Assembly (NCBI GenBank): GCA_021823165.1
Contig: JAKAOS010000001.1
Coordinates: 4,543-68,542, forward strand
Origin: Actinomycetes bacterium
GTDB taxonomy: Bacteria > Actinomycetota > Acidimicrobiia > Acidimicrobiales > JAKAOS01
DNA length: 64,000 bases
Direction of reading: 5' to 3'
Part shown: positions 44,698 to 62,168 of the stretch, piece by piece
Layout: each line of letters begins with the position of its first letter
Position numbering within the stretch: position 1 is the first letter of the stretch
Program-made: the position numbers and the translations under genes
The notes under the pieces: generated by a model
What the model was told of the DNA's origin: nothing
Databases searched by the model: none
The model's input: only the letters and a program-made list of their open reading frames with translations

Positions 44698-46083
44698 ATG
44701 TCAGCCAGCGATCCCGCAGCTTCTGTCAACCCGGTTCCCACCACTGCAGAGGAACTCGCCGCGGCCGTAGAACGTGACGGGGTGGAGTTCATGCTCGCGA
44801 TGTTTGTGGACATGCATGGAAAACCCTGTGCCAAACTGATTCCCGCCTCATCGGTGGAAGAGACCGCCAAATCTGGTGCGGGCTTTGCGGGCTTTGCGGC
44901 CGGCGCACTGGGCCAGACCCCGGCCGATCCCGACCTTGCGGCCATTCCCGATCCCCGTTCCTACACGGTGCTGCCGTGGAAGCCGGAGGTGGCCGTGGTC
45001 CAGTGCGACCCGACGGTGGGGGGAGAACCCTGGCCCTTTGCCCCCAGGGTGATCCTGGGCAGGCGCCTTGCCGCTTTGGCGGAGCGTTCGATGACTCTCA
45101 TGTGCGGAGCGGAGGCGGAGTACTTCTTGGTGCGCCGTTCGCCCGAGGGAGAGGTGATCCTCGCCGACGACCAGGACAGCGCAGCCTCCCCCTGTTACGA
45201 CGTTCGCGGCCTCATGCGGATGTATGACCACCTTGCTGCGGTGTCGCGGCATCTGAACTCTTTGGGTTGGGGCAACTACGCAAACGACCACGAGGATGCC
45301 AACGGGCAGTTCGAACAGAACTTTCGGTATGCAGATGCCATGACGACCGCGGACAGGCTCGTGCTCTTCCGATACCTGGTCCACTCCCTGGCCGAGGAGG
45401 CGGGCATGGAGGCGACCTTCATGCCCAAACCATTTTCGAACCTGACCGGCAACGGCTTGCACGTTCATTTGAGCCTTTGGTCCCACCAGGGCGATGAGCT
45501 CTTCGTGGATCCCGATGACCCCCGGGGCCTCGGGGTTTCTGGTCTTGGCTATCAGTTCATTGCAGGAATGCTGCAGCATGCTCGCTCCGCCGCCGCCATT
45601 ACCTGCCCCACGGTGAACTCCTACAAGCGCATGGGGGCCGGCCCTCCCCTGTCCGGTGCCACATGGGCACCTGCATATGTCGCCTATGGGGGCAACAACA
45701 GAACACACATGTTGCGGATCCCCGAACCCGGCCGGGTCGAGAACCGGGCGGTGGATGGGCTGGCAAATCCCTATCTCGCCTTTGCCGTGCTCCTGGAGGC
45801 CGGCCTCGACGGAGTCGACAGGGGACTGGACCCCGGGGAGCCGAATACCGCGAACCTCTTCGAGGCTGGCGTTGCAGACAAGGCGGGGCTTGGCTCCCTC
45901 CCCCCGACGCTGCTGCATGCCGCCGATGAACTGGTGAAAGACGACGTGCTGCGTTCCGCCCTCGGCAAGACCCCCCGCGGGGAGTACATCGACTACTACG
46001 CAGAGCTCAAGCGGCAGGAGTTCTTTGCGTATCACTCTCAGGTCAGTTCATGGGAGATCGATACCTATCTTTCCCGGGTCTGA
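44698..46083 (+). CDS. Glutamine synthetase-family protein, gamma-glutamyl-amine (GmaS/PuuA-like) synthetase candidate
   Basis: 461-aa GS catalytic-domain pattern with 'GAEAEYFL', 'HEDANGQFEQNF', 'ATFMPKP', 'GNGLHVHLSLW' and 'NRTHMLRIP'. Confidence 0.88.
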   Translation: MSASDPAASVNPVPTTAEELAAAVERDGVEFMLAMFVDMHGKPCAKLIPASSVEETAKSGAGFAGFAAGALGQTPADPDLAAIPDPRSYTVLPWKPEVAVVQCDPTVGGEPWPFAPRVILGRRLAALAERSMTLMCGAEAEYFLVRRSPEGEVILADDQDSAASPCYDVRGLMRMYDHLAAVSRHLNSLGWGNYANDHEDANGQFEQNFRYADAMTTADRLVLFRYLVHSLAEEAGMEATFMPKPFSNLTGNGLHVHLSLWSHQGDELFVDPDDPRGLGVSGLGYQFIAGMLQHARSAAAITCPTVNSYKRMGAGPPLSGATWAPAYVAYGGNNRTHMLRIPEPGRVENRAVDGLANPYLAFAVLLEAGLDGVDRGLDPGEPNTANLFEAGVADKAGLGSLPPTLLHAADELVKDDVLRSALGKTPRGEYIDYYAELKRQEFFAYHSQVSSWEIDTYLSRV

Positions 46084-46167
46084 GTTGTCTCTAAAGAAAC
46101 GAAGTAGTATGCTAGGAAACATTGCTGGCTCGGATCAGGGGATCGCCAGCCGATCGAGGAGGCGCCT

Positions 46168-47070
46168 ATGTGCGGAATAGCCTGCCTGTTGCTGAAGGAC
46201 GACTCACTGCAAAGTCGTCTTGGTGAGCTGATGGTTCCCATGGTGCAGGCCATGGAGGAGAGGGGAGCAGACTCGGCGGGTATTGCGATCTTCGGCCCCG
46301 GGGAACCCGCAGGTCTTCGCTTCTCCCTTTTAGCCAAACCGGGTGTCAACTGGGAGGACCTGGCGGCAGATCTTGCCGGTGAAGTCGGCGCCGATGTCAC
46401 CCTGGGCCGTAGGGCAGGGGCGAATGGGACCATTGCGACTCTGTTATGTGACTCCGATCCCCTTGTTTTCTCCAAGGCCCTCGAGGCTGTGGTGCCCAGC
46501 GTGGCTCTTTTGGGCTGGGGCCGTTCGGTGGAGGTGCTGAAGGCCACCGGGGCACCCAGCCAGATGTGCGAGGAGTACGGCATTGGGAACCTGGCCGGCC
46601 ACATCGGCCTGGCGCATACCCGTATGGCTACGGAGTCCGCAGTGACCGCAGAGCATTCCCATCCCTTTGTCCCCAGCCAGGACCTGGCGATTGTCCACAA
46701 TGGGAGCTTTTCAAACCACGCGACCGTCCGAAGAAGGCTGGAGGCGGAGGGCATCAGACTCGACACCGACAACGACTCAGAGGTGGCCGCCCGCTTTTTG
46801 GCCCTGCGCCTGGGCGAGGGGGACTCCCTTGATGGAGCGGTTCGGCACCTGACTGTGGAGATGGACGGCTTTTTCACCCTCGTGGTCGCCACCGCAGATG
46901 AGATATCGGTCGTGCGGGACGCCTTTTCCTGCAAGCCCGCAGTGGTTGCCGAAACCGAAGATTACGTAGCGGTCGCCTCGGAGTACAGGGCTCTGGCGAC
47001 ACTTCCCGGAATCGAGTTGGCAAAGGTGTTCGAGCCGCAGCCCGAGGAGGTCTACACGTGGTCACGCTGA
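46168..47070 (+). CDS. Class-II glutamine amidotransferase-like protein (GltB N-domain homolog; MgsA/GlxB-like)
   Basis: Ntn start 'MCGIACLLLK' and 'GLAHTRMATES'. Confidence 0.85.
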   Translation: MCGIACLLLKDDSLQSRLGELMVPMVQAMEERGADSAGIAIFGPGEPAGLRFSLLAKPGVNWEDLAADLAGEVGADVTLGRRAGANGTIATLLCDSDPLVFSKALEAVVPSVALLGWGRSVEVLKATGAPSQMCEEYGIGNLAGHIGLAHTRMATESAVTAEHSHPFVPSQDLAIVHNGSFSNHATVRRRLEAEGIRLDTDNDSEVAARFLALRLGEGDSLDGAVRHLTVEMDGFFTLVVATADEISVVRDAFSCKPAVVAETEDYVAVASEYRALATLPGIELAKVFEPQPEEVYTWSR

Positions 47071-47750
47071 ACTGCGAGGGTGTGGGCACAAGGGAGATCA
47101 ACAGAACTCTCCAGTCCCTCCCCGAGGGTGCAACGGCGGTGCTGGAGGCCCCAGGTGGCCGCCACAACCTGGTGGTCGGCGTATCGGAGCCGATAAAAGT
47201 CCAGGTGATGGGCAACGCGGGTTACTACCTGGGTGGCCTGTGCGGCTCCAAGGACGCAACGGGTCTCGAAATCAGGGTGAAGGGGTTCACTGGCTGGGGA
47301 ACCGGTGAGAACCTGATGGGCGGCACCATCGTGGTGGAGGGCAGTGTCTCTCAGAGCACCGGCGCCTCGGCCAGGGGTGGGCTGATTGTGGTGGAGGGTG
47401 ACGCATCGCTGCGCACGGGCATCTCGCTCAAGGGGGCCACCATCGCCGTCGCAGGAGACAGCGGGGCGATGACGGGCTTCATGGCCCAGGCCGGGACCAT
47501 CCTCATTGGCGGGGACGCCGGGCACGCCCTTGGGGACTCATTGTTCGAAGCGGTCATCTATGTGGCGGGGCGTATTCGCTCCCTGGGCGCCGACGCCCGG
47601 ATAGAGGACCTGACAGAGGAGGACGTTGCTGCGGTGAAGAACCTCGTGGAAAAGGCGGGATTCGACCATATCTCGCCCGGCGATGTGACAAGGGTTGCAT
47701 CTGCCAAGCAGCTTTACCACTTCCGCTCCGAGCACCGGGGGATCTACTGA
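47058..47750 (+). CDS. GXGXG-motif protein (GltB C-domain homolog; MgsB/GlxC-like)
   Basis: Beta-helix repeats 'GNAGYYLGG', 'MGGTIVVEGS', 'RGGLIVVEGD' and 'GTILIGGDAG'. 13-nt overlap with the upstream gene. Confidence 0.85.
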   Translation: MVTLNCEGVGTREINRTLQSLPEGATAVLEAPGGRHNLVVGVSEPIKVQVMGNAGYYLGGLCGSKDATGLEIRVKGFTGWGTGENLMGGTIVVEGSVSQSTGASARGGLIVVEGDASLRTGISLKGATIAVAGDSGAMTGFMAQAGTILIGGDAGHALGDSLFEAVIYVAGRIRSLGADARIEDLTEEDVAAVKNLVEKAGFDHISPGDVTRVASAKQLYHFRSEHRGIY

Positions 47751-49096
47751 TGAAAACCGCTCCCGAACCGCACAACCACAGCTTCCCCAAAGAGGTGATC
47801 GGCCGGATACACGAAATGGCCGAGAGCGGAAACTACGTGATCCGGGGCCTGGGGGCGAGGCGGCGCCTGCCAAGCTTCGATGACCTGAGCTTTCTCACCG
47901 CGTCCGCTTCCCGATACCCCCTCGAGGGCTATCGGGAGCAGTGCAGCACCCAGACGGTGCTGGGGGCACGCAATGGTGCCAAGCCCATCGTGTTGGACAT
48001 ACCAATCACCATTGCCGGCATGAGCTTTGGCGCCCTGTCGGCCTCGGCTAAAGAGGCCCTGGGTAGGGCGGCGAGTGCGGTTGGGACGTCTACCACCACA
48101 GGCGATGGCGGCATGACCCCAGAGGAGCGCAAGGCATCGGCCAAACTCGTCTACCAGTTGCTCCCCTCCCGCTACGGCTTCGATCCGGGGGATCTCCGCC
48201 AGGCCGATGCGGTGGAGATCGTGATCGGCCAGGGTGCCAAGCCCGGAGGCGGTGGCCTCCTTCTGGGCCAGAAGGTCGACGAGAGGGTGGCCTCGATGCG
48301 GACTTTGCCCGCCGGGATCGACCAGCGCTCCGCCAGCCGGCACCCCGATTGGGTCGGCCCCGATGACCTGCAAATCAAGATCGAGGAGCTCCGGGAGGCC
48401 ACTGGGGGTGAGATCCCGGTTTATGTGAAGATTGGTGCCACCAGGGTTACCCACGACGTCAAGCTGGCGATAGCTGCTGGAGCCGACGTCGTTGTGGTCG
48501 ATGGAATGCAGGGCGGAACAGCCGCCACCCAGGAGGTCTTTATCGAGCACGCCGGGATCCCGACCCTCCCCGCGGTTCGTTTGGCCGCCGAGGCCATTGC
48601 CGATGCCAATGTCGATGGCGAGGTTCAGCTGATTGTCTCGGGAGGAATCCGCTCCGGCGCGGATGTCGCCAAGGCACTAGCCCTGGGCGCCGATGCGGTC
48701 TCTCTTGGTGTCGCATCCTTGGTGGCATTGGGTTGCAATCGCGGGCACTACCAAAGCCCACTGGGCAAGCTTGTGGACCTCGAGGCCGACTACAGGGCGA
48801 TTGGCACCAGGCCGGGGGAGTGCGCCCACTGCCACACCGGGCTCTGCCCGGTCGGTATTGCAACCCAGGAGCCGGCCCTTGAGCAACGATTGGACGTGGA
48901 GGCGGCCGCGGAGCATGTTGCCAACTTCCTGCGCGCCACCACCATGGAGGTGACCGCCATTGCCAGGGCATGTGGGAAATCCGACGTGCATCACCTGGAG
49001 CCGGAGGATTTGGTGGCCCTGAGCATCGAGGCCGCTGCGATGGCGAGGGTTCCACTGGCAGGCACCGACTGGATCCCGGGAATGGGTAGGCCGTGA
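47750..49096 (+). CDS. FMN-binding glutamate-synthase-family protein (GltB central-domain homolog; MgsC/GlxD-like)
   Basis: 'GAKPGGGGLLLG', 'VVVVDGMQGGTAA', 'VSGGIRSGADVAKALALGADAV' and '[13 protein letters not shown]'. TGATG junction with the upstream gene. Confidence 0.88.
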   Translation: MKTAPEPHNHSFPKEVIGRIHEMAESGNYVIRGLGARRRLPSFDDLSFLTASASRYPLEGYREQCSTQTVLGARNGAKPIVLDIPITIAGMSFGALSASAKEALGRAASAVGTSTTTGDGGMTPEERKASAKLVYQLLPSRYGFDPGDLRQADAVEIVIGQGAKPGGGGLLLGQKVDERVASMRTLPAGIDQRSASRHPDWVGPDDLQIKIEELREATGGEIPVYVKIGATRVTHDVKLAIAAGADVVVVDGMQGGTAATQEVFIEHAGIPTLPAVRLAAEAIADANVDGEVQLIVSGGIRSGADVAKALALGADAVSLGVASLVALGCNRGHYQSPLGKLVDLEADYRAIGTRPGECAHCHTGLCPVGIATQEPALEQRLDVEAAAEHVANFLRATTMEVTAIARACGKSDVHHLEPEDLVALSIEAAAMARVPLAGTDWIPGMGRP

Positions 49097-49129
49097 CCGG
49101 CACGAACCTGAGAAACAATCCTTATAAGT

Positions 49130-50317
49130 GTGGTTGCCGTGGCTGAACAAGATCGGGCAGTGATCATCGTCGGCGGGGGCATAGAGGGCCTTTCGATCGC
49201 CCGGGCGCTCGCCGCCCGGGGCGTCGGGCCGGTGACCCTTTTGGAGCGGGCCCACTTGGCTTCGGGCATGACCAGCAAGTCAAGTGGGGTAGTGCGGTGC
49301 CACTACGGGGTGGAATCCCTTGCTGCGATGGCTTGGCGTTCCGTCGGCATCCTGGAGGACTTGGGCATGGCGGCGGGATTTCGCCAGGTCGGCTATGTCG
49401 TTGGAGTTGGCGAGCAAAACACCGTTGCCCTCAAGGCAAATGTGGCCACACAGCAGGCACTCGGCATAGAAGTGGAGCTCATAGACCACGGCAAGGCAGC
49501 CGAGCTGTGGCCCCATGCCAAACTCGACGACTTCGCCGGCTTCGCCTACGAACCCCGCGGCGGTTACGGCGACGGCTACCAGACGGCGCAGAGCTTTGCA
49601 TCCCAGGCAAAGGATCTGGGCGCCGAACTGCGGCGGAAGACAGCTGTGGAGTCCCTTGTTCACTCCGCCGGGGAGATCACCGGTGTCGCCTTGGCAGACG
49701 GCAGCGTCATCAGGGCGCCAAAGGTGGTGGTTGCGGCCGGCATGCATAGCTCGGCACTCATGCAACCTTTGGGTATCGCGGTACCCCTCCGAGCGCAGTT
49801 GGCGCCCATCTTCCTGGTGGACCCCGGGCAGAGAACCGGAGCCATCCCGGTTCTTTCGGACTTGGTTTCTCTGCAGTATGTAAGGCCCGACGGAGCGGGC
49901 TCGCTGCTCATGGGTGGGAGCGACCACAACAACCCCACCTGGGTGGACCCAGACCGCTACCCGACGGGGCCCACGTGGGCCCACATGTCTGATGCCCTAT
50001 CCAAATTCGAATACCGCTTCCCAAAACTCACCGGAGCGTCCGTAGTCTCCTCCTACACCGGCTATTACGACGTAACCCCCGACTACAACCCGGTCATATC
50101 AGCCACCCCAATTGCGGGTCTGTATCTGGCGGCTGGATTCAGTGGTCATGGTTACAAGATCTCGCCGGCCGTAGGGGAGCTTATGGCGGATTTGATCTGT
50201 TGTGGGGAAAGCCAGTATCCCGGCATTGATCACAAAGATTTCCAGCTCCAACGCTTTGTTGAGAAACGACCGTTGCTGAGCCCGCACCCCTACGTGGGTG
50301 CCGGCGAGATGCGCTGA
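49130..50317 (+). CDS. FAD-dependent oxidoreductase (DAO / sarcosine-oxidase-beta-like)
   Basis: 'VIIVGGGIEGLSIARALAARG' and a C-terminal 'GFSGHGYKISPAVG'. Confidence 0.85.
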   Translation: MVAVAEQDRAVIIVGGGIEGLSIARALAARGVGPVTLLERAHLASGMTSKSSGVVRCHYGVESLAAMAWRSVGILEDLGMAAGFRQVGYVVGVGEQNTVALKANVATQQALGIEVELIDHGKAAELWPHAKLDDFAGFAYEPRGGYGDGYQTAQSFASQAKDLGAELRRKTAVESLVHSAGEITGVALADGSVIRAPKVVVAAGMHSSALMQPLGIAVPLRAQLAPIFLVDPGQRTGAIPVLSDLVSLQYVRPDGAGSLLMGGSDHNNPTWVDPDRYPTGPTWAHMSDALSKFEYRFPKLTGASVVSSYTGYYDVTPDYNPVISATPIAGLYLAAGFSGHGYKISPAVGELMADLICCGESQYPGIDHKDFQLQRFVEKRPLLSPHPYVGAGEMR

Positions 50318-50390: not shown

Positions 50391-51062
50391 ATGGCCAAAG
50401 ACCTGGACAAGGGGAACCGCCGCCGCGTGCCCGAGGAAGGGGAGATCGAGCAGGAAACGGGGGAGGGGTCCTCCTCCGACCCCGAAGCTGGCGAAGCAAC
50501 AATGAAACAGCTCGGCTGGGTAATCGGGCACCACGTGCAGGCACGCAGGACCGAACTCGGCCAGACCGTCAGCCAGGTAGCGGACCGTGCGGGGATATCC
50601 AAGGGGATGCTCTCCAAGATAGAAAACGCCCATACCTCTCCCAGCCTGAGTACCCTTGCCCGCATCGCTGCGGCACTGGACATGCCACTTACTGCTCTTT
50701 TCCGTGGACTGGCGGAAGAAAGGGACGCCGTCTTTGTGAAGGCGGGGGCGGGCCCGGAGATAATCCGCCAGGGCACCAGGGCCGGACATCACTATCGCCT
50801 GCTGGGCAGCCTGCGCGGCCAGGAGCACAAGGTGGAGCCACTTCTGGTAACCCTGGAGGAACCCGCCGAGGTCTTTCCCCTGTTCCAACACAACGGCGTG
50901 GAGATCCTCTACATGCTCCAGGGCGTAATGGATTATGGCTATGGGACCCAGCACTACAGGATGTGCCCGGGCGACACCCTGCAGTTCGAGGGCGACATCA
51001 CCCATGGACCCAGCGCACTGGTCGAGTTACCGATCCGGTTTCTTTCGATCACGATCTTCTGA
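50391..51062 (+). CDS. XRE-HTH plus cupin transcriptional regulator (PuuR-like architecture)
   Basis: HTH 'LGQTVSQVADRAGISKGMLSKIENAHTSPSLSTLARIAAAL' and a C-terminal cupin 'GVEILYMLQG...PGDTLQFEGDITHG'. The start is ambiguous: 50340, 50391 or 50502. Confidence 0.8.
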   Translation: MAKDLDKGNRRRVPEEGEIEQETGEGSSSDPEAGEATMKQLGWVIGHHVQARRTELGQTVSQVADRAGISKGMLSKIENAHTSPSLSTLARIAAALDMPLTALFRGLAEERDAVFVKAGAGPEIIRQGTRAGHHYRLLGSLRGQEHKVEPLLVTLEEPAEVFPLFQHNGVEILYMLQGVMDYGYGTQHYRMCPGDTLQFEGDITHGPSALVELPIRFLSITIF

Positions 51063-51341: not shown

Positions 51342-52343
51342 GTGTTTGAGGCGACCCGTTCACGACAGGCGAAAGATCCTCCATTGACGATTTCCCAAAG
51401 CTTTCCTTTCCCTTTCGATTCCGACGAATATCGATACAGCATCAATTTGCGGCGGTCCGATGAGGCTCCGGTCGTGGTTGACGACTGGTATCTGGCCGAG
51501 ATAACCGAGCGCCGGTCCCTCCTCGACGAAGCGCACAGCCGCTGTTTCCAGGCCGAACCATGGACGATGCAGGCGCAGTGGGAGGTGCTCAGCTTGTGCC
51601 TCGCCGCCCTGGCGACCCAGGCGCCGGAGCACTTCAGGCTGGATATTCACGGGGAACGATGCGAGTTCGAGAATCGCCTTTCCGGAGAAATCCTCCGTTT
51701 CCGCATGTGGGATGACATGACCCTGGATTGCCAGCCCCTGGACCTCGCCGGCAGACACGTGCAGGAGGACCTCATACTCCTTGCCCAGAGGGAGGACGAC
51801 CTCTTCCTCGATGCCGGATCGGTGTGCTTCCCCGCCAACTGGTCCTTCCCCTTCGACGCAGGCATGAGCTACACCCAGATCCACTCCCCGGTCCCTTACT
51901 TCGGCAAACATTTGGCACCCAAGGCTCAGGCGTTTTTGGAGCGGATCCAGGCCTACGAGCAGTGGCAGCGCCTGAACTGGACCATGACGGTTAAGAGACG
52001 GTTGGATACCTCGGCGGAGAAGTACCACATCTGGCAGCCTGACTCTTTGGGTCTCGATCTCGACAACGTGGGTCGGCTTGTGCATTTGCGGGTCGAGGTC
52101 CAAAAGTTCGTCCGGCTTCCGGTGAGCAACCTCCTTTTGTTCACCATCCATACCTATATGCAGCCACTCGAAGAAATCGTGGGGAATCCAGAGTGGACCA
52201 GCCGGCTGGAGGCGGTGATGGCAAGCCTCCCAGACACCGTCGCAGAGTATAAAGAAATTGCACATTACAAGGATTTAGTTATCCAATACTGTGCAAAGCA
52301 AAGCTATCCCAGTGCCAAAGAGCTGGTCAGCAGGTCCAACTAA
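51342..52343 (+). CDS. DUF3445 / haem-dependent oxidative N-demethylase alpha-subunit-like protein
   Basis: 333-aa ORF. The N-terminal 'FPFPFDSDEYRYSINL' and overall length fit my recollection of DUF3445, and a PDR-type reductase lies in the same operon. The family call is from memory only. Confidence 0.7.
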   Translation: MFEATRSRQAKDPPLTISQSFPFPFDSDEYRYSINLRRSDEAPVVVDDWYLAEITERRSLLDEAHSRCFQAEPWTMQAQWEVLSLCLAALATQAPEHFRLDIHGERCEFENRLSGEILRFRMWDDMTLDCQPLDLAGRHVQEDLILLAQREDDLFLDAGSVCFPANWSFPFDAGMSYTQIHSPVPYFGKHLAPKAQAFLERIQAYEQWQRLNWTMTVKRRLDTSAEKYHIWQPDSLGLDLDNVGRLVHLRVEVQKFVRLPVSNLLLFTIHTYMQPLEEIVGNPEWTSRLEAVMASLPDTVAEYKEIAHYKDLVIQYCAKQSYPSAKELVSRSN

Positions 52344-52479: not shown

Positions 52480-52872
52480 ATGATGGAAACCAGCACCATA
52501 GTTGAGGCACCAGGCATAACGCTGCTAAAGGCGGGAACTCTTGGCTTGCATGAACTCGAGGACCGGATGGGCATTCCCGGGTTGCGGTCGCAGATTGCCG
52601 ACATACCGGTGAGCCTGGGGGAGTTACCGCTGACAGCCGGGCGCTTTGCCATGCAGAAGTCCGTCGACTTTCCCTACGTGTATACGTATCTGGAAGTCAA
52701 GGTTGTGGTTACGGGCAAGATCATTGTCCGCGACGAAGCAGGCACGCGTTATGTCGGGGAGCCCGGCGATATCTTTATTTTCCGGCCCACGACCACCGTC
52801 ATATTTGACAAGGAAAGTGACGGCACCGCGGTGTATGTGGGGCATCGCATTCAGGACCCGGACTTTAGCTAG
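52480..52872 (+). CDS. Cupin-domain protein (EutQ-like)
   Basis: AAGGAG (52471-52476) precedes ATGATG. Cupin core 'YTYLEVKVVVTGKIIVRDEAGTRYVGEPGDIFIFRP'. Confidence 0.7.
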   Translation: MMETSTIVEAPGITLLKAGTLGLHELEDRMGIPGLRSQIADIPVSLGELPLTAGRFAMQKSVDFPYVYTYLEVKVVVTGKIIVRDEAGTRYVGEPGDIFIFRPTTTVIFDKESDGTAVYVGHRIQDPDFS

Positions 52873-52898
52873 ATCGTCGCCGGCCAGAGGATTCAGAC

Positions 52899-53474
52899 AT
52901 GACTCGCGATCTGACAACGGGGGAGACCCTGGCTGGACGGATTGAAAAGGTCCAGTTTCAGGCCGAAGAACCTCTGATTGTTTGTTTTTCGGACAGACTC
53001 GGAGGTTCTTCGGAACAGTTGCGCTCTGGCGGGCTGAGCCTGGGTGGGTCTTTGGCCACCGTGGGTTTGGCAGATCTAGATTGGCGCAGCTGTGCCGAAT
53101 CCATAGAGCCGGTGGCTGAAGCCCTTGGCCGCCTTGTCATGGGGACGAGGCTGATCTTGGCAACGGGGCCCGACTGGGCCTGCCTGCTGGAGGAGGCCGC
53201 CATGGTCGGCGGGTTCGATCTGGGAATGATCGAACGGAGCGAAGAGGGCGATTCTTCCCTTCGGATCTACTGCGCGCCATGTTCCTCAGTGGTTTGCCAA
53301 ACAGAGTTGGCCAAGGGCCAAAGGCGGTTGCAGTGCATATCGTGTGGATCCTGGATCGAGGTGTCTGGCCACTACTCCCGGCGTTTACGGGCCTATTTGG
53401 CCGTGGGCGTTCCCATGTTGGTAGATGAGAGACAAGCGTTGGTGGCGGGCCCGAAGTCCATGGCAAAGACGTGA
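52899..53474 (+). CDS. DmmA-like protein: degenerate FNR-type NAD domain plus C-terminal CxxC-X17-CxxC ribbon
   Basis: 'GTRLILATGPDWACLLEEAAMVGG' resembles the GP-containing NAD-domain end of ferredoxin reductases. It also has 'CAPC...CISC'. The family name is recalled, not verified. Confidence 0.55.
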   Translation: MTRDLTTGETLAGRIEKVQFQAEEPLIVCFSDRLGGSSEQLRSGGLSLGGSLATVGLADLDWRSCAESIEPVAEALGRLVMGTRLILATGPDWACLLEEAAMVGGFDLGMIERSEEGDSSLRIYCAPCSSVVCQTELAKGQRRLQCISCGSWIEVSGHYSRRLRAYLAVGVPMLVDERQALVAGPKSMAKT

Positions 53475-54439
53475 GGGCAAATCGGCCAGCCACCCAACGG
53501 CTCCGCATCGTAGGCCTGGGGAGCGAAGGTTCTGTTGTAAGGCTTGTGCATCTGGAGAGGGTGGGCAAAGAGCCCGTGGCGGCATTCGGCCCAGGTGCCC
53601 ACATAACAACCGAACTGCCCACCGACCAGGGAGTGCTTCGCCGGTCGTATTCCTTGACGGGGGATCCGAGGGCCACCAAGACGTACTCCATAGCCGTTGC
53701 CCGCTCTACTGCATCCGACGGTGGTGCCGCGTTTTGGCATCGGAGGGCTCGCGTCGGTGACGTCATCGAGGCGAGTTTGCCCCGCAACCAGTTTTCCCTG
53801 GCCCCAAAGGCCACCCATCACATTTTCTTGGCGGGCGGGATTGGCATCACGCCGTTTATCCCAATGCTATATCAGCTGCGCCAACAGAAGCGTTCGGCAG
53901 AACTGCACTATATGGCTCGCACCAAACAAGAAGCGGCCTTTAGGTCTCTGCTGGAACGCGAGTTCGGCGACCAGACCACGATCTACTTCACAAGGGAGGG
54001 CGCAAGCGACAGGTTTGATGCCGCGGGACTTAAGAAGGCTCCGATAGGTTCCCATCTCTATCTCTGTGGGCCACGAGGAATGGTTGACGCCTATCGGCTA
54101 AAGGCATTCGAGGTCGGGTTCCCAGATACCAGGGTGCATCGAGAACTGTTTCAAGCCGGCCAAGCCGGGACGGGTAAAGCATTTACGGCTCATCTTGCCA
54201 AGAGCAACAAAACTATTGCCGTCGGTGAGAAAGAAACATTGCTCGATGCAATCGAACGGGAGGGGGTTGAGATCCCGAGTTCGTGCAGGATCGGCGGATG
54301 CGGAAGCTGCCTCGTAGAGGTGCTGGAGGGAGCGCCGGATCATCGGGATGACTACTTCTCTAAGGGCGATAGGAGCGATCAGCAGATTCTTCCGTGCGTA
54401 TCCCGCACGTCGGGTGATTTGTTGGTTCTCAATATCTGA
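53471..54439 (+). CDS. PDR/VanB-type oxidoreductase (flavin + NAD(P)H + plant-type 2Fe-2S)
   Basis: 'RRSYSL', 'LAGGIGITPF', 'LYLCGPRGM' and a C-terminal 'CRIGGCGSCLVEV...LPCVS'. GTGA overlap with the upstream gene. Confidence 0.88.
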   Translation: MRANRPATQRLRIVGLGSEGSVVRLVHLERVGKEPVAAFGPGAHITTELPTDQGVLRRSYSLTGDPRATKTYSIAVARSTASDGGAAFWHRRARVGDVIEASLPRNQFSLAPKATHHIFLAGGIGITPFIPMLYQLRQQKRSAELHYMARTKQEAAFRSLLEREFGDQTTIYFTREGASDRFDAAGLKKAPIGSHLYLCGPRGMVDAYRLKAFEVGFPDTRVHRELFQAGQAGTGKAFTAHLAKSNKTIAVGEKETLLDAIEREGVEIPSSCRIGGCGSCLVEVLEGAPDHRDDYFSKGDRSDQQILPCVSRTSGDLLVLNI

Positions 54440-54589
54440 ATAGCACTTCATTTCAATCTCACCAGCCACGTTAGGAACTGAAACGAGTGGACCGGTGGTT
54501 TGTATCGGTCAGATCCCCATGGGAACTGACATTTAGACGTAACTGATATCCGACAGGTGGCTCAGTAATTATCGAGAGGGTGATATGCC

Positions 54590-56056
54590 ATGATGGAAAG
54601 CGAACTCCTCCGAGAACGGGAGGAAAAGGAGCATTATAAACGAACGCTTGTCAAAAGCGTGCGTTGGTATGACGGGGTGATCCTCATAGGCTTCGGCGTG
54701 CCTGGTCTGCTGTATCCGAGCGTGGGTTCCTCCGTGGTCGCCCTGGGGGCACTTGGGGCGGCTGTGGTCTGGGCCCTGTCGGCAATAATCGGTAAGTTCC
54801 AGGCCAACATGGTCTCGGAAGTAGCCGCGATGTTCCCCGAAAAAAGCGGCGGCATCGGGATATTGGCATCCGAGGGAATCAGCAGGTATGGCAAGCCTTT
54901 TGGTGCGCTGGCGGCCTTTGCCTACTGGTTCGGTTGGACCATTGTCATGGCCATCAACGGCGTGTTGGTGGGCGACTACATCAAGGCGACGATCTGGCCA
55001 TCGGCCTCGCCCGAGTTGCTGGGCACCGTGATGCTGGTGCTGCTCTACCTCTTCAACGTCTATGGCCTCAAGCCCGGCGTCTGGGCGGGGTATGCACTTG
55101 GGGTGGCCACGGTTGTCCCGATGGGGCTGATGATCGTCGGGGCGTTCTTCGGAGGGTCCTTCCACTGGGGTCATCTGGCCCAGGTCGCCCTACCCAATCA
55201 CATCGGCTGGACGTCGATGAAGGGATTGGGAGTGGTGCTTACGTGGATGTTCATTGTGGGGTGGAGCGCATATGGCACAGAGGCGGCGGCCACTCTCGCT
55301 CCGGAATACCACGACACCGTCCGGGATACGCCCAAGGCGCTGCGGGGTTCGGCGACCATAAGCATGGCCTTTTACGTGCTGATGCCCCTTGCGGCCGTCG
55401 GCGTACTCGGCATTAGCCAGATCCAGAAGAGCCCCTATACCGCATTTGCTCCCATGCTGGACAAGATCCTGGGCCCCGCTGCGGGTGGGGTGGTGATCAT
55501 AACGGTGCTGGCGTCTTTGGTGCTGTCGGCAAACCTGGCCACCATCGGTGGGTCCCGCACGCTTTACCAGGCGGCAAGGGATCGTCACATCCTTACGATC
55601 TTTGGGTACGTAAACAAGCGGGGGATCCCCGCCGCGGGCATGACGCTGGACCTGATCGTCAATGTTGCCTTCATCTGGGCACTGAAGAACCCCATTGCGA
55701 TCCTGGTTGCCTCCAACGTCGGCTACTTCGTGGCATGGATCTTGATGCTCGTATCCTTCGTGCTGCTGCGCAGGGACCGTAAGGACGTTGCGAGGCCGAT
55801 CAAGCTGAAGCCGGCGTGGGTCGGTGGAGGGGTGCTGCTGATCGCTTTGAACACCGTGTTCCTTATCGTGGGTGCGCCCTCCTATGGCGCCGGGCCCCTC
55901 CTGTTGGGTGTGGGCGTCCTGGCCCTGTCGATTGTGATGTGGGCGGTGCGCAACTACTTCGAGGAGCCTCGGAGAATGAAGCGGGCCACCCGGGTGCAGT
56001 GGGATACTCCCGATTCGGAGATCAACATCGAAGACGCCGGAGCCGAGGCCTCGTGA
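54590..56056 (+). CDS. APC-superfamily amino acid/amine permease
   Basis: 488-aa ORF with ~12 TM segments and APC-like segments 'VSEVAAMFPEKSGGIG' and 'FAYWFGW'. Confidence 0.85.
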   Translation: MMESELLREREEKEHYKRTLVKSVRWYDGVILIGFGVPGLLYPSVGSSVVALGALGAAVVWALSAIIGKFQANMVSEVAAMFPEKSGGIGILASEGISRYGKPFGALAAFAYWFGWTIVMAINGVLVGDYIKATIWPSASPELLGTVMLVLLYLFNVYGLKPGVWAGYALGVATVVPMGLMIVGAFFGGSFHWGHLAQVALPNHIGWTSMKGLGVVLTWMFIVGWSAYGTEAAATLAPEYHDTVRDTPKALRGSATISMAFYVLMPLAAVGVLGISQIQKSPYTAFAPMLDKILGPAAGGVVIITVLASLVLSANLATIGGSRTLYQAARDRHILTIFGYVNKRGIPAAGMTLDLIVNVAFIWALKNPIAILVASNVGYFVAWILMLVSFVLLRRDRKDVARPIKLKPAWVGGGVLLIALNTVFLIVGAPSYGAGPLLLGVGVLALSIVMWAVRNYFEEPRRMKRATRVQWDTPDSEINIEDAGAEAS

Positions 56057-57246
56057 ACAGAGCCGTGGTTGGGTCTTTGGATGATGTCCGAAGGGTCTGT
56101 CACGAAGTTGGCCAGGAGGTTCTGGAACCCGCAAGGGCCGAGACCGACGCCGGGGTTTATCCCCGGCGCGGCTTGGCCGCCCTGGCCTCGGTCGGGATGG
56201 GGGCCATAACGGTAGGGGAGGAGTATGGGGGGCTTGGCCTTTCATACGAAGCCTTTACCGCAGCCGTAGAGGTGATTGCCTCCTACTGCGCGTCCACGGC
56301 GATGGTCTATGTGATGCACACCGGAGCCGTGGAAAGGGTCAAGCTGGCGGGCAGCGACTCCCAGAAGGCGACGTATCTGGCTGGGGCCTCGGAGGGTCGG
56401 ATCGGTTCGCTGGCATTCAGCGAGCCAGGCACCGGGGGCCACTTCTGGTACTGCACGAGCCAGGCCGCCCGCGATGGCGACGGCTACGTGTTGGTCGCAG
56501 ACAAGTCCTTTGTCACCTCTGCCGGTGAGGCGGACTGGTATGTGATGCAGACCCGTTCGCCCGACTCCGATGCTCCCGAAAACATGTCCTACTTCTTGAT
56601 AGATGGTGGCTCACCGGGCATCAATACTCCCTTTCCCTGGGACGCTTTGGGCCTGCGGGGCAACTCATCGGGGCCGATGCGCTTTGAGGATGTGAGGGTG
56701 AAAGAGGAGGCGGTGCTCGGGAACCACGGCGATGCCGCCTACTGGAATGACAACGCAGTCGATCCGGTGTTCCTCTTGGGCTCCAGCGCCTGTTGGTTGG
56801 GCATCGCTACCGGTGCCTTTGAACGGGCGGTGGAGCACACCAAACGCACGGTGCACAAGGACTTCAATCACAGCATCGGCGAGTACCAGGTGGTGCGCTC
56901 CTATGTGGCAGACATGTCGGTAAAGGTGGCGGCGGCCAGGGCCCTGACCTACGAGGTTGCCAGGGCCCTGGATGGCTTCGATCGCGCCGGCCAACCCTTG
57001 GGGTCCGACCTGGAGGCTTTGTGGCGACTGAAGATCCTTACCTCCAAAACCGTAATAGAGGTCACCAACCTGGCCCTTCAGGTGTCCGGTGGCCGCGGCT
57101 ACCGCCGGGGCGCCATCGAGCAGGCCTACAGGGACGGCCGGGCGGGGGCGATCATGGGGCCCACCAACGAGATGTGTGCCGAGTGGATTGCCAAGACGGC
57201 CCTGGATATGCCCCTTGGCTACTGGTATGAGGGCAAGGACGTCTAA
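56053..57246 (+). CDS. Acyl-CoA-dehydrogenase-fold flavoprotein lacking the canonical C-terminal catalytic Glu
   Basis: ACAD pattern with 'GLSYEAF', 'GSLAFSEPGTGG', 'KSFVTSAG' and 'LQVSGGRGY'. The 'IYEGT' position reads 'IMGPT'. GTGA overlap with the permease stop. Confidence 0.85.
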   Translation: MNRAVVGSLDDVRRVCHEVGQEVLEPARAETDAGVYPRRGLAALASVGMGAITVGEEYGGLGLSYEAFTAAVEVIASYCASTAMVYVMHTGAVERVKLAGSDSQKATYLAGASEGRIGSLAFSEPGTGGHFWYCTSQAARDGDGYVLVADKSFVTSAGEADWYVMQTRSPDSDAPENMSYFLIDGGSPGINTPFPWDALGLRGNSSGPMRFEDVRVKEEAVLGNHGDAAYWNDNAVDPVFLLGSSACWLGIATGAFERAVEHTKRTVHKDFNHSIGEYQVVRSYVADMSVKVAAARALTYEVARALDGFDRAGQPLGSDLEALWRLKILTSKTVIEVTNLALQVSGGRGYRRGAIEQAYRDGRAGAIMGPTNEMCAEWIAKTALDMPLGYWYEGKDV

Positions 57247-57264
57247 AGGTGAAAGACACCTAGG

Positions 57265-57969
57265 GTGTCCAAAGACCCAGGCGCCAATCCAGTTGTGCCC
57301 AAAGGGAACCGATGGGCCGCCGATGGTGGCTTTGTGGACCTGACTCGCCCGGTGACCGAGGACATGGCCACATATCCCGGCGAACCTCCGGTAATGCTTC
57401 GCAGGTTGTACAACGGCCCCTTTGTCTCTTTCGAGATCTCTCTGTCCTCGCATGCCGGAACCAGCCTCGACACGCCGCTGCATGTGCAGCCCGATGGGGG
57501 AAAGAGCCTGGGCGCCTACGAAGTTTCCCGCTTCATCCTGGCTGCCACGGTCGCGCATCTGGATTTGGGCATGGACGAGGTGATCGACAAAGCCGCCATC
57601 TCGGGGGCACTCATGGGTGGCGCCGGTGCTGGGAGCCGGCCGGGGCGGTGTTTGTTGATCGATACCGGATGGGCCCGGCATTGGGGATCCCCCCGGTATT
57701 GGCGGCACCCATTTCTGGGACAGGATGCCGCCATGGCGATTGCCGAAAGCGATATTTCCCTGGTCGGCATCGACACCCCCAACGTCGATTCGACCATGCA
57801 AAACAAAAGCGTGGTCCACCGTGTGCTTTTGGGGGCCGACGTGTTGGTGGTGGAGAATCTTTGCAACCTGGACCTCTTGGACGGCAGCGGCCGGTCCTGG
57901 ACCCTTGCCTGCCTGCCGCTGTCGGTGCCATCCGCCGATGGCTCACCGGTCAGGGCGGTGGCCTGGTGA
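57265..57969 (+). CDS. Cyclase-family protein (kynurenine-formamidase-like fold)
   Basis: 'SSHAGTSLDTPLH' is a variant of HxGTHxDxPxH. Also 'IDTGW', 'LVGIDTPNVD' and 'VVENLCNLD'. Confidence 0.8.
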   Translation: MSKDPGANPVVPKGNRWAADGGFVDLTRPVTEDMATYPGEPPVMLRRLYNGPFVSFEISLSSHAGTSLDTPLHVQPDGGKSLGAYEVSRFILAATVAHLDLGMDEVIDKAAISGALMGGAGAGSRPGRCLLIDTGWARHWGSPRYWRHPFLGQDAAMAIAESDISLVGIDTPNVDSTMQNKSVVHRVLLGADVLVVENLCNLDLLDGSGRSWTLACLPLSVPSADGSPVRAVAW

Positions 57970-58008
57970 GGCGGCCATAGCCGCCCACCTGGTGAGCGGA
58001 ACCAGGGC

Positions 58009-59112
58009 TCAGGCGGGCGCGAGCGGGGTCTTGTCGGGTGGCGAGGTGGGGGTCTGGCGAGCGGGGACCTCGTCGTTCAGGGCATCGATCAGCTGGCGGA
58101 GCCGGCCATAGTGGTGGCGGTCGAAGCGAAGGGCCACCCGCTCCAGGTCGAGGTGGTCACCCTCGGCTCGCTCCGGCGCCATGGCGTGAACCAGATGGAT
58201 GCCGCGATGGTCGCAGATCTCGGCAAAGCGTTCCGAAAGCTCTGCAAGCCTTTCTGGCCCGGGGGCCTTGCGCAACCTGATGACCAACTGGTTCCCCACG
58301 AAGCGGGAGGAGTGGTAGTTGCGGTAGAAGGAGAGGAGTTCGGTTGCAGCCATATCCACGCTGTCGGTTATGCGGTAGAGGGAGAGGTCCTCTTTGGACA
58401 CGAGGCCTCTTGCAACCAGTTCCTCTTCCACCCAATGCTGCCAGCGGTGCCAGTAGGTGCCGCCGGGGACATCGACCAACACGATTGGAGCCGGTTGCGA
58501 CTTGCCGGTTTGTGTCAGGGTAAGGAGTTCGAAGGCCTCGTCCTGGGTGCCGAATCCGCCGGGGAGTATTGCAAAGCCGTCAGTTTCCTTCATCAACATG
58601 AGCTTGCGGGTGAAGAAGTATTTCATCTCCACAAGCTTGGGGTCCTCGGCTATGACCGAGTTTGCACCCTGTTCGGCGGGTAGGCGGATGTTGATGCCGA
58701 AGGACCGTTCCCGGCCCGCTCCTTCCAACCCGGCGGCCATGATCCCCGGCCCGGCCCCGGTTATGACCATCCATCCCTGTGCGGCAAGCCGCGCGGCAAG
58801 TTCTTTGGCTTGCGCGTAAAGCGGGTCCTCGGGAAGGGTCCGGGCAGAGCCGAACATGGTGACCTTGGGGATGCTGCGGTAGGGGGCGAAGACGCGGTTG
58901 GCCTCGCCCATCTCTGTGATCGCGGCCCGGATGATTTTCAGATCCAACCGCTCTGTCGGCTGGGAGGCCAGGCCGAGGGCCACGGCAATGATGTCCGCCA
59001 AGAGGTCCCGGTGCTGGGTGGCTCCAACCGAATCCAACAGGCTGCCAACGGCGGCGGCGGTCTGTGGGTCCAGGGAGTTGGCCGGCCTGGGGCGCTCCTC
59101 GATGCCGCTCAA
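58009..59112 (-). CDS. LOG-family (TIGR00730-type, PpnN-like long form) nucleotide nucleosidase candidate
   Basis: 'VTMFGSAR', 'VITGAGPGIMAAG' and 'ILPGGFGTQDEAFE' (PGGxGTxxE). TTGA overlap with the fbiC stop. Confidence 0.82.
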   Translation of the reverse strand: MSGIEERPRPANSLDPQTAAAVGSLLDSVGATQHRDLLADIIAVALGLASQPTERLDLKIIRAAITEMGEANRVFAPYRSIPKVTMFGSARTLPEDPLYAQAKELAARLAAQGWMVITGAGPGIMAAGLEGAGRERSFGINIRLPAEQGANSVIAEDPKLVEMKYFFTRKLMLMKETDGFAILPGGFGTQDEAFELLTLTQTGKSQPAPIVLVDVPGGTYWHRWQHWVEEELVARGLVSKEDLSLYRITDSVDMAATELLSFYRNYHSSRFVGNQLVIRLRKAPGPERLAELSERFAEICDHRGIHLVHAMAPERAEGDHLDLERVALRFDRHHYGRLRQLIDALNDEVPARQTPTSPPDKTPLAPA

Positions 59113-62143: not shown

Positions 62144-62168
62144 CGGCGTCGAGGGCGAACAACGGGGC

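Follow-up and report, generated by a model that had tools for sequence, protein, structure and literature searches.

Introduction

The described proteobacterial pathway for TMA consists of the FMO-type TMA monooxygenase Tmm, the TMAO demethylase Tdm, and DmmDABC or the HODM system as monooxygenase for dimethylamine (DMA). The turnover of TMA, TMAO, and DMA matters for the nitrogen and carbon cycles, for emissions of amines that form aerosols, and for TMA/TMAO chemistry in the gut, but tmm, tdm, and dmmDABC do not account for all degraders. A "bottleneck" at dmm has been described (PMC5520151), and neither Tmo nor Tmd was found in methylamine-using Bacillus genomes (PMC5023230). A second relevant system is the group of two-component monooxygenases with the acyl-CoA dehydrogenase (ACAD) fold, which is established as group D (PMC10696468).

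In the present study, a permease gene, a gene for an ACAD-fold protein, and a cyclase-family gene were analyzed in a window of 64 kb, i.e., the whole stretch of DNA that was examined. The three genes are a conserved module of a transporter, a flavoenzyme, and a metal hydrolase in a methylamine-utilisation island. The ACAD-fold protein probably carries out the flavin-dependent oxidation of a methylated amine and not of a CoA thioester. Judged from comparative evidence, the chances are about even that it serves as the oxygenase in a two-component monooxygenase of the group D type, which would depend on reduced flavin and act on a small methylated amine.

Organization of the locus

The module is part of a 13-kb island that also encodes GmaS, MgsABC, a sarcosine-oxidase-like flavoprotein, and a haem-containing dimethylamine demethylase of the Dmm/HODM type (Table 1). 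The neighbors include the parts by which a DmmABC/HODM system is recognized, namely, the HODM alpha subunit (PF11927), a DmmA-like subunit, and a flavin/2Fe-2S reductase. Tmm, Tdm, and a GcvT-type DmmD were not found in the 64-kb window; DmmABC suffices for activity without DmmD (PMC5520151). A homolog of the HTH_3 + Cupin_2 regulator is also present in an island of the sister clade described below (L050). The EutQ-like cupin recurs in 22 of the 40 loci of the window's own clade, and small cupins are known as unexplained companions of methylated-amine genes (PMC5023230).

Table 1. Genes of the module and of the surrounding island, with the matches that identify them
Feature	Position	Strand	Basis
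GmaS	44698-46083	+	TIGR03105 passed, 591.8 (cut-off 469.6)
MgsA	46168-47070	+	Pfam; N-methylglutamate pathway block 44698..50317
MgsB	47058-47750	+	Pfam; N-methylglutamate pathway block
MgsC	47750-49096	+	Pfam; N-methylglutamate pathway block
Sarcosine-oxidase-beta-like DAO flavoprotein	49130-50317	+	Pfam
HTH_3 + Cupin_2 regulator	50391..51062	+	Gene call and Pfam in L006
HODM alpha/DmmB-like haem PAS subunit	51342..52343	+	PF11927, 2.8e-66; L006 gene call starts at 51474
EutQ-like small cupin, role unassigned	52483..52872	+	Weak Cupin_3/EutQ matches
DmmA-like subunit	52899..53474	+	PF22289, NF041259
PDR-type reductase, DmmC-like (flavin/NAD-binding and 2Fe-2S)	53471..54439	+	Fer2, DmmA-like_N, NAD_binding_1
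APC-family permease, 488 aa, first gene of the module	54590..56056	+	Pfam AA_permease_2, 3e-42
ACAD-fold flavoprotein, 397 aa, without catalytic Glu	56053..57246	+	Three ACAD Pfam domains
Cyclase-family (PF04199) metal-hydrolase-fold protein, His to Ser	57265..57969	+	Pfam Cyclase, 5.5e-22

As the ACAD gene starts with GTG at 56053 and the TGA stop of the permease gene ends at 56056, the two genes share the tetranucleotide GTGA (56053-56056). The reading frames and coordinates thus agree with the overlap that had been claimed in the original prediction, and the public gene call of the near-identical contig L006 has the same ACAD start. The cyclase gene had been placed 18 nt downstream of the ACAD gene, and this spacing was found between the TAA stop at 57244-57246 and the GTG at 57265, which is preceded by AAGGTGA. 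The cyclase start is ambiguous, with most gene callers choosing the GTG at 57295 (224 aa); a 234-aa form was also recorded (P0256). Close coupling was also observed in orthologs, where the cyclase and ACAD genes overlap by 8 nt (L003 and L009) or are separated by 7 nt (L138).

Active site and fold of the ACAD-fold protein

The ACAD-fold protein contains RDGRAGAIMGPTNEM, as had been stated in the original prediction. In HMMER alignments with PDB 2dvl and 5ol2, Gly369-Pro370 take the place of E-G in "YEGT". Alignment with human MCAD by MAFFT agrees with this result and gives the changes E376 to G, G377 to P, and Y375 to M. The reading of the Glu376 equivalent as Gly was borne out by both types of alignment. 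An IVD/LCAD-type alternative Glu, together with intact CoA-binding residues and activity on ordinary acyl-CoAs, had been named in advance as a finding that would speak against a non-CoA route, and the ACAD-fold protein has no Glu at the IVD-254/LCAD-261 position. Nothing in the family corresponds to the MCAD stretch K254-T255-R256, in which the IVD/LCAD-type base is positioned; the sequence there is D-P-x-F-L-L-G, and Arg256 is absent.

Both features, namely, the Gly at position 376 and the absence of the K-T-R stretch, hold across the 120 homologs listed, and the motif RDG[RK]AGxxMGP[TS]NE was present in all of them (120/120). The missing Glu, like the Ser substitution of the cyclase-family protein, is a family hallmark and more than chance. 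No paper on an ACAD-fold family with the MGPTNE hallmark was found in the literature. The family is widespread, and its members are misannotated as acyl-CoA dehydrogenases or AidB-like proteins.

The protein matches the Pfam N, M, and C domains of ACADs, and the flavin-contact positions S123, T155, and G346-G347-x-G349 are kept. The nearest PDB folds to its AF2 model (pLDDT 89) were SCAD and Bcd, with TM scores of 0.86-0.88 (Foldseek). The protein is probably not a canonical acyl-CoA dehydrogenase (EC 1.3.8.x), since the fold agrees but the Glu is missing at both known base positions. In the case of NCBIfam, all matches (22/22), CaiA among them, were far under the cut-off, the best being FadE16 with 227 against 600 bits; acryloyl-CoA reductase (AcrC) and 3SP-CoA desulfinase were also among the top-scoring families. 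The ACAD families reached 183-227 bits, compared with 76 bits for DszC and 50 bits for HsaA. In both sequence and fold, the protein resembles true short-chain ACADs more closely than it does the known group D oxygenases, which counts against the oxygenase reading. No match to Tmm (NF058570) was obtained, and any equivalence with Tmm would be functional only.

The top-scoring NCBIfam families would also suit a CoA or carrier-protein thioester enzyme whose base has moved, or an ACAD-fold enzyme without redox chemistry like 3-sulfinopropionyl-CoA desulfinase, with the placement in the island being coincidental or regulatory. Glu373, four residues past Gly369, could be such a relocated base, which counts against the oxygenase reading, and is invariant in both methylamine-linked clades. 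A thioester or non-redox enzyme is nevertheless very improbable, as no NCBIfam cut-off was reached and the protein lacks Arg256 as well as a Glu at either known base position. Moreover, those recurrent neighbor families of 32 genome loci that were identified comprised transporters, regulators, and genes for methylated amines or flavin, with no CoA-related genes among them, and the methylated-amine synteny of the ACAD family spans two phyla.

The original prediction placed the genes in an oxidation route for amines, tied to the demethylase module and not to CoA substrates or fatty-acid metabolism. All comparative tests that were run agree with it: no Glu is present at either known base position, the gene lies in a complete methylated-amine island, and the module is kept with HODM/Dmm in four other lineages. 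It is further supported by relatives that are flanked by flavin reductases and a TMAO demethylase and not by CoA-pathway genes. The probable substrate is a methylated amine at the TMA, DMA, or TMAO level.

Metal motif of the cyclase-family protein

The motif HAGTSLDTPLH aligns with HTGTHIDAPFH of the kynurenine formamidase of B. anthracis. The predicted motif and its His-to-Ser change were confirmed, but the Ser stands at the second His position of the three and not, as had been claimed, at the third, and the complete motif HxGTHxDxPxH is not present. Position 57 is occupied by Ser, and H53, D59, H63, H175, and E187 are retained, so that five of the six conserved His/Asp/Glu positions of the family remain; we take these positions to be the metal ligands of KynB. 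The protein scored 78.9 bits on PF04199 (cut-off 23.1) and 81 bits on the arylformamidase equivalog TIGR03035, which is under the cut-off of 223. The nearest folds to the AF2 model (pLDDT 91) were kynurenine formamidases (Foldseek, KynB 1.6e-18).

Ser was found in all ACAD-adjacent cyclases (5/5). In the profile search, only 8 proteins carried it, and a gap separated their scores from those of approximately 100 relatives with His; these 8 database proteins and that of L138 form the Ser-variant clade. As the nearest characterized relatives in sequence and fold are kynurenine formamidases, which cleave an N-formyl bond, and 5/6 metal-ligand positions are retained, the cyclase may be a formamidase-type hydrolase that frees DMA or methylamine (MMA) from an N-methylated formamide or amide, e.g., DMF or N-methylformamide. 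The flavoprotein would then make or consume this amide, and the nearby HODM system could take the DMA. This amide route is hardly probable, since the metal-motif substitution marks a separate small clade, the sister clade of the ACAD-fold protein pairs with a TMAO demethylase and not with amidases, and an amide-forming step is not evident.

Conservation of the module and recurrence of flavin reductases

The full set of permease, ACAD-fold protein, and Ser-variant cyclase was found in L009 (78% identity), L003 (62%), and L138 (57%), the last of which has the genes in another order within one compact cluster. The Ser-variant cyclase gene of Alkalihalobacillus (L031) is directly upstream of the ACAD gene, with no adjacent permease. 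HODM genes are present in all four lineages despite the rearrangement, and in at least nine Bacillales loci the ACAD gene is in the same cluster as an HODM/Dmm system. The permease gene is directly 5' of the ACAD gene in L003, L009, L057, and L138. The best NCBIfam match of the window permease was the TMAO permease NF053774 (185 bits; 202 bits for the far-clade permease). As 185 bits is far below the cut-off of 690, the window permease is related to the TMAO permease and not its ortholog.

StyB/HpaC/HsaB-like PF01613 proteins are encoded at +1 of the ACAD gene in L004, L056, and L063 (53-56% identity), SsuE/MsuE-like PF03358 proteins at +1/+2 in seven Bacillales loci, and PNPOx-like proteins nearby in L003 and L057. 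The reductases flanking the ACAD relatives thus belong to three different families. A flavin reductase was located within 3 kb of the ACAD gene in 11/40 loci of the window's (near) clade and PF01613 within 10 kb in 17/57 loci of the sister (far) clade. The recurrence of three unrelated NAD(P)H:flavin reductase families beside one gene is the signature of two-component oxygenases. However, tblastn detected no dedicated flavin reductase in the 64-kb window, where only the PDR-type reductase is encoded, and the conserved ACAD-type FAD-binding residues fit a tightly bound FAD; both points count against an oxygenase.

They would suit a bound-FAD amine dehydrogenase or oxidase, which would remove hydride from a C-H bond in a methyl group of TMA or DMA, giving an iminium ion and then, by hydrolysis, formaldehyde, and pass the electrons to O2 or a partner without free reduced flavin. 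The nearest folds, which are true dehydrogenases, and a stand-alone FAD synthetase gene in 15/40 near-clade loci agree with such an enzyme. It is considered improbable because of the three reductase families beside the ACAD gene, and ETF genes were not seen among the ACAD neighbors.

The far clade and a possible DMA step

The far clade has the same MGPTNE motif at approximately 40% identity. In 31/57 of its loci, a TMAO demethylase gene is directly downstream of the ACAD gene, and the encoded Tdm passes the TMAO demethylase equivalog (1196.6, cut-off 1100), while HODM was found in only 1/57. In the lineage L053-55, a bona fide Tmm (789.5 in L053, cut-off 675) is in one operon with the ACAD-fold protein and Tdm, which counts against the preferred reading. 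L057 contains both ACAD paralogs and a split Tdm. As the ACAD family is consistently located in methylated-amine islands, and beside tdm in these 31 loci, it is a concrete candidate for a missing step.

The same reduced-flavin monooxygenase chemistry may instead act on DMA, giving methylamine and formaldehyde, possibly via N,N-dimethylhydroxylamine. The cyclase (window) or Tdm (far clade) would then supply DMA from TMAO or process an N-oxygenated intermediate. With this assignment, the far-clade permease, ACAD-fold protein, Tdm, flavin reductase, and methylamine genes form a gap-free route from TMAO through DMA to MMA, in keeping with the rarity of HODM, and the Pseudonocardiales operon of permease, ACAD-fold protein, Tdm, and Tmm is complete and non-redundant. 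In L004, L084, and L108, the sole partners of the ACAD gene are a reductase, a transporter, and the methylamine pathway. In L004 and several far-clade loci, its links are limited to a reductase and genes of the methylamine pathway, and the conversion of DMA to MMA fits these loci better than that of TMA to TMAO. Moreover, dmmDABC is missing from many methylated-amine degraders (PMC5520151). However, in the five lineages of the window type and in the Bacillales loci, the ACAD gene clusters with HODM/Dmm, the characterized function of which is already the conversion of DMA to MMA, and L138 has both in one compact operon; the two paralogs of L057 also speak against this role. To our knowledge, there is little precedent for the N-demethylation of a simple secondary amine by a flavin hydroperoxide. 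Taken together, a DMA-level role is somewhat unlikely, although nearly as likely as the conversion of TMA to TMAO.

Proposed pathway

The assignment of TMA to TMAO to the ACAD-fold protein of the window is tentative and is based on parsimony, as the ACAD-fold protein, the Ser-variant cyclase, and HODM then each receive one non-redundant step in window-type clusters. TMA or TMAO would be imported by the APC permease, and TMA would be N-oxygenated to TMAO by the flavoprotein using reduced flavin and O2. TMAO may then be converted to DMA and a C1 unit by the translationally linked Ser-variant cyclase-fold metalloenzyme. Subsequently, DMA would be converted to methylamine by the adjacent haem Dmm/HODM system, and GmaS, MgsABC, and the DAO flavoprotein would complete the pathway. 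With regard to the third step, the characterized cyclase-family relatives are all hydrolases and not N-oxide lyases, which argues against a lyase role, and the Ser-variant cyclase also occurs without the ACAD-fold protein, beside an aldehyde dehydrogenase, which counts against the proposed pairing.

A broader proposal, which we consider doubtful, is that Gram-positive and related bacteria have a methylated-amine route without Tmm, and in the window lineage also without Tdm, that uses an ACAD-fold, reduced-flavin-dependent amine oxygenase family of two specialized clades. The window clade would be a TMA N-oxygenase with the Ser-variant cyclase as a new TMAO demethylase, and the sister clade in Tdm operons would provide the DMA monooxygenase that is missing where dmmDABC is absent. 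Assigning the ACAD family would improve the functional annotation of soil and wastewater metagenomes.

Comparison with known systems

The window protein shares with the group D amine N-oxygenases (the isobutylamine N-hydroxylase VlmH/IBAH and the aminosugar N-oxygenases KijD3, ORF36, and DnmZ) the three-domain ACAD fold without the catalytic Glu and a context of amines instead of CoA compounds. Some of its orthologs have a separate NAD(P)H:flavin reductase encoded next to them, as in that class. The likeness to IBAH, KijD3, ORF36, and DnmZ is one of fold and context; these enzymes belong to antibiotic biosynthesis, whereas the window protein belongs to C1-amine catabolism. It presumably acts on a tertiary or secondary methylamine instead of a primary amine, and the motif RDG[RK]AGxxMGP[TS]NE is its own hallmark. 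Neither IBAH nor KijD3/ORF36/DnmZ was recognised among the depositor names of the best 60 PDB sequence matches, most of which were named acyl-CoA dehydrogenases, and the group D families compared by score (DszC, HsaA, and HPAH-C2) were far below the ACAD families.

Short-chain ACADs, namely, human SCAD (2vig), Bcd (5ol2), and the T. thermophilus enzyme (2dvl), were the best matches, with 26-32% identity and conserved FAD contacts. Unlike them, the window protein has Gly for Glu, Pro for the next Gly, and Met for Tyr375, is without the K-T-R stretch before helix G, and has no beta-oxidation context.

With the proteobacterial TMA pathway, the window shares HODM alpha, DmmA, the reductase, GmaS, MgsABC, and a TMAO-permease-like transporter, and the sister ACAD clade directly adjoins Tdm. 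In contrast to that pathway, the ACAD-fold and cyclase-fold proteins stand where Tmm and Tdm would be expected. Finally, the cyclase has the same fold as KynB and other PF04199 hydrolases, i.e., isatin hydrolase and cyclase-phosphotriesterase (TM 0.76-0.87), but differs from KynB in the Ser at the second His of its metal motif and in its context, which is amine catabolism and not tryptophan degradation.

Gene organization of the methylated-amine island

The permease, the ACAD-fold flavoprotein (ACAD), and the PF04199-family protein (cyclase) closed a single island in which all genes were co-directional (Table), and the flanks were housekeeping genes, with ThiD on one side and LOG, FbiC, and OpcA on the other. 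The fusion of CofG and CofH in FbiC hints at a host of actinobacterial type. As had been claimed, the TGA stop of the permease overlapped the GTG start of ACAD at 56053, and the same start was used by the public gene call on L006, a near-identical MAG contig (GCA_027414495.1). The claimed spacing of the cyclase gene was also found in the sequence, its GTG at 57265, preceded by AAGGTGA, being 18 nt past the ACAD end. The start chosen by gene callers was mostly GTG 57295, which gives a protein of 224 aa, and a form of 234 aa has been recorded as well. In orthologous contigs, the cyclase and ACAD genes overlapped by 8 nt (L003 and L009) or were 7 nt apart (L138). Thus, the coupling of the two genes was tight and conserved with either window start.

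The promoter and terminator scan gave signals at or below shuffle expectation, and an Rfam search of window 44000-58300 gave no match. A GC-rich hairpin (GGCGGC-CATA-GCCGCC) without a T-tract was present immediately after the cyclase stop, where the cyclase and LOG-family genes converge, and may act like a terminator in both directions. A 288-aa ORF without a family match overlapped the regulator gene out of frame and is probably spurious. The GC content was 0.57-0.59 across window 50000-56000, which spans the regulator, the genes of the haem dimethylamine demethylase system (HODM/Dmm), and the permease, versus 0.60-0.67 elsewhere in the window; this dip suggests that the low-GC part was horizontally acquired.

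The best family for the permease was the Methylocella TMAO permease, at 185 bits far short of the 690-bit cut-off. Homologs of flavin reductase, Amt, FAD_syn, PNPOx-like proteins, and the 243-255-aa family hyp243 gave zero matches in the window, and both a GcvT-type DmmD and a dedicated flavin reductase were absent from it. Pfam analysis of ten further large window ORFs found neither TMA monooxygenase (Tmm) nor TMAO demethylase (Tdm).

Table. Coordinates of the features in the window and in related contigs
Feature	Sequence	Position	Strand	Remark
GmaS, MgsA, MgsB, MgsC, sarcosine-oxidase-beta-like flavoprotein	window	part of 44698-57969		GmaS passes TIGR03105
288-aa ORF	window	50330-51196
HTH+cupin (HTH_3+Cupin_2) regulator	window	50391-51062		gene call in L006
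HODM alpha	window	within island 44698-57969		PF11927
EutQ-like small cupin	window	52483-52872
DmmA-like subunit, PDR-type reductase	window	within island 44698-57969
Permease	window	54590-56056		downstream end of island
ACAD	window	56053-57246		downstream end of island
Cyclase	window	57265-57969		downstream end of island
Hairpin	window	57970-57985
LOG/TIGR00730 protein, fused CofG-CofH (FbiC) F420 FO synthase, 6-phosphogluconolactonase, OpcA	window	58009-63791	-	unrelated to island
Stand-alone FAD_syn gene	L001	13262-13924
hyp243	L001	16205-16936	-
hyp243	L015	9068-9835
EutQ-like cupin	L024	6048-8790
Far-clade locus	L050	8001-12301
Far-clade locus	L053	3553-10662
Middle-clade locus	L048	1750-9197
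Cluster with both ACAD clades	L057	6250-18264		metagenomic
ACAD-free Ser-variant cyclase locus	L136	6401-10106
ACAD-free Ser-variant cyclase locus	L137	6473-10539

Active site and fold of ACAD

The original prediction placed a Gly at the position of the MCAD Glu376 base, and this was upheld by two alignments. HMMER alignments to PDB 2dvl and 5ol2 paired G369-P370 with the E-G of 'YEGT', the ACAD motif, and the MAFFT alignment with human MCAD agreed with this result (Y375M, E376G, and G377P). MCAD K254-T255-R256, which contains the alternative IVD/LCAD base position and the conserved Arg256, was unmatched, the family reading D237-P-x-F-L-L-G. The motif RDG[RK]AGxxMGP[TS]NE and residues H89, H130, W132, H268, D270, and K327 were present in all 120 homologs listed, and the FAD-contact positions S123, T155, and GGxG were kept. 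Glu373, four residues after Gly369, was invariant in both amine-linked clades and missing from the third, and may be a relocated catalytic base.

No NCBIfam family reached its cut-off for ACAD; FadE16 scored 227 of 600 bits, and the group D-type models DszC and HsaA scored 76 and 50 bits. The AF2 model (pLDDT 89) was nearest to SCAD/Bcd-type ACADs (TM 0.86-0.88), and its top matches were true ACADs only. A fold match of such a model cannot by itself tell a dehydrogenase from an oxygenase.

Genomic context of ACAD relatives

Relatives were gathered from a protein search, twelve contigs, and scans of genomes (36 loci) and metagenomes (80 loci), and their neighbourhoods were mapped by tblastn with 40 reference proteins. 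Neighbours were clustered for 32 genome loci; the identifiable recurrent ones were transporters, regulators, and methylated-amine or flavin genes, and none belonged to a CoA-related family. An NJ tree divided the relatives into three clades, namely, the window's own (near), its sister (far), and a third (middle).

The near clade, whose members were 44% or more identical to the window ACAD, comprised 40 non-redundant loci from high-GC lineages and many Bacillales, including B. methanolicus PB1, Domibacillus aminovorans, Paenibacillus validus, and Sporosarcina; the 20 middle-clade loci were left out of these statistics. Within 10 kb, the neighbours were a EutQ-like cupin (22/40), hyp243 (18/40), a stand-alone FAD_syn (15/40), Amt (13/40), HODM alpha and its reductase (13/40), Mgs/GmaS of the N-methylglutamate pathway (7-9/40), an SsuE/MsuE-type FMN reductase (7/40), an OpuAC-type transporter (7/40), and a PF01613 reductase (3/40). 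Outside the cyclase-linked group, the nearest relatives (L004, L056, and L063; 53-56% identity) had a StyB/HpaC/HsaB-like flavin reductase directly 3' of ACAD, and a PNPOx-like protein took its place in L003 and L057. L138 (57% identity) carried a compact cluster of cupin, permease, ACAD, Ser-variant cyclase, DmmA, reductase, and HODM alpha.

The EutQ-like cupin often occurred in two to four paralogous copies, with four in Domibacillus aminovorans; such cupins had already been noted alongside Tmo, Tmd, and Mao genes, with no explanation for their presence there (PMC5023230). The FAD_syn gene encodes an FMN adenylyltransferase domain (PF06574, ~220 aa) and hints at a dedicated FAD supply. hyp243 had no Pfam match, and its loci with a named organism were all from Bacillales. 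Using hhalign, hyp243 and the far-clade family hyp162 showed no remote homology to cyclase, DUF1989, cupin, or PhyH. In Bacillales, hyp243 may stand in for the cyclase or Tdm as the partner.

The far-clade ACADs (57 loci; ~40% identity to the window ACAD; 461-475 aa) shared the MGPTNE-Glu motif. In 31 of the 57 loci, a TMAO demethylase equivalog (1196.6 vs 1100 cut-off) lay within 300 nt downstream of ACAD. Other neighbours were an APC permease (26/57), a PF01613 reductase (17/57), a PhyH-type oxygenase (12/57), and Mgs/GmaS (~10/57), with HODM and Tmm in one locus each; the true Tmm was an addition in one Pseudonocardiales lineage. ACAD-Tdm pairs, as in L050, L047, and L053, were accompanied by a StyB/HpaC-like flavin reductase. 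The APC permease adjoined a zinc-ribbon membrane protein in 17/57 loci, and the PhyH-type enzyme is an Fe/2OG oxygenase.

The middle clade (38-43% identity; motif RDARAxIAMGPSN; L048 and L061-L081) lacked Glu373, and methylated-amine neighbours were found in 0/20 loci. In Bradyrhizobium, its ACAD came after a luciferase-like monooxygenase and a branched-chain-type ABC transporter. L057 combined both other clades with a Tdm split into separate DUF1989 and GCV_T genes. Its genes were DUF1989, a regulator, an APC permease, near-clade ACAD, a PNPOx-like protein, stand-alone GCV_T, far-clade ACAD, and hydantoinase A/B, which is consistent with two specialised ACAD paralogs.

Ser-variant cyclase

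The cyclase had been described as carrying Ser in place of the third His of its metal motif. The substitution stood, but alignment of HAGTSLDTPLH with HTGTHIDAPFH of kynurenine formamidase showed that the second of the three His was replaced; H53, D59, H63, H175, and E187 were kept. Ser was present in all five ACAD-adjacent cyclases (window, L009, L003, L031, and L138). When 5.8 billion proteins were searched with a profile, Ser variants were the top eight matches (251-368 bits), separated by a score gap from His-bearing relatives (at most 211 bits). Two of the eight (L136 and L137) had no neighbouring ACAD and each followed an aldehyde dehydrogenase, ruling out that the variant is exclusive to ACAD partners. 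Their order was aldehyde dehydrogenase, cyclase, and transporter under sigma-54 activators, and nearby was either hydantoinase A/B (Brevibacillus fluminis) or a gene for HODM alpha. The cyclase model (pLDDT 91) matched kynurenine formamidases, Mn hydrolases, cyclase-phosphotriesterase, and isatin hydrolases, all of them hydrolases.

Proposed function

We consider ACAD somewhat more probably than otherwise a reduced-flavin-dependent oxygenase of a methylated amine, because both known catalytic base positions are empty, synteny with methylated-amine genes is kept across two phyla, NAD(P)H:flavin reductases from three unrelated families are repeatedly adjacent to it, the sister clade pairs with Tdm, and none of the recurrent neighbour families identified in the 32 genome loci was CoA-related. 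The same evidence supports and sharpens the originally predicted direction, an amine route rather than fatty-acid metabolism.

For the step in this window, TMA N-oxygenation is put forward tentatively. ACAD would convert TMA to TMAO, the cyclase TMAO to DMA, and HODM/Dmm DMA to MMA, which would enter the N-methylglutamate pathway; this order follows from assuming one non-redundant role for each gene of a window-type cluster. The least secure part of this scheme is the assignment of the cyclase as an analogue of TMAO demethylase; all its characterised relatives are hydrolases. A formamidase-type or imine/nitrone-hydrolysing enzyme releasing an aldehyde would also fit, in keeping with the variant's other context beside aldehyde dehydrogenase.

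A DMA-level role of ACAD, which we regard as nearly as probable here as TMA N-oxygenation, best explains the far clade, where TMAO import, Tdm, and then ACAD with a reductase would give a gap-free route to MMA. It also agrees with the Pseudonocardiales ACAD operon that holds a true Tmm, and with L004, L084, and L108, where the only genes linked to ACAD are those of a reductase, a transporter, and the methylamine pathway. The bona fide Tmm in the same operon (L053) rules out ACAD as a simple Tmm replacement in all clades. A methylamine-level role was rejected: in the methylated-amine islands examined, ACAD occurs together with NMG genes or Cu amine oxidase, either of which provides a methylamine pathway, and ACAD would be redundant there.

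DmmABC is the established DMA monooxygenase and is missing from many methylated-amine degraders (PMC5520151). In methylamine-using Bacillus genomes, neither Tmo nor Tmd was found, and the flavoprotein described here was not mentioned (PMC5023230). The ACAD family and the Ser-variant cyclase were not found in full-text literature on DmmDABC, HODM, two-component TMA monooxygenase, TMAO demethylase with ACAD, or ACAD-fold N-oxygenases. Judged from sequence comparison, the ACAD family is a group of uncharacterised, misannotated flavoenzymes dedicated to methylated-amine catabolism, with which the variant metal-hydrolase partner, the cyclase, co-evolves in the window lineage. The family is a variant within a known enzyme class and offers a testable claim on an open TMA/DMA pathway step. 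With a separate flavin reductase, the proposed ACAD would be built like the reduced-flavin-dependent monooxygenases of group D (PMC10696468).
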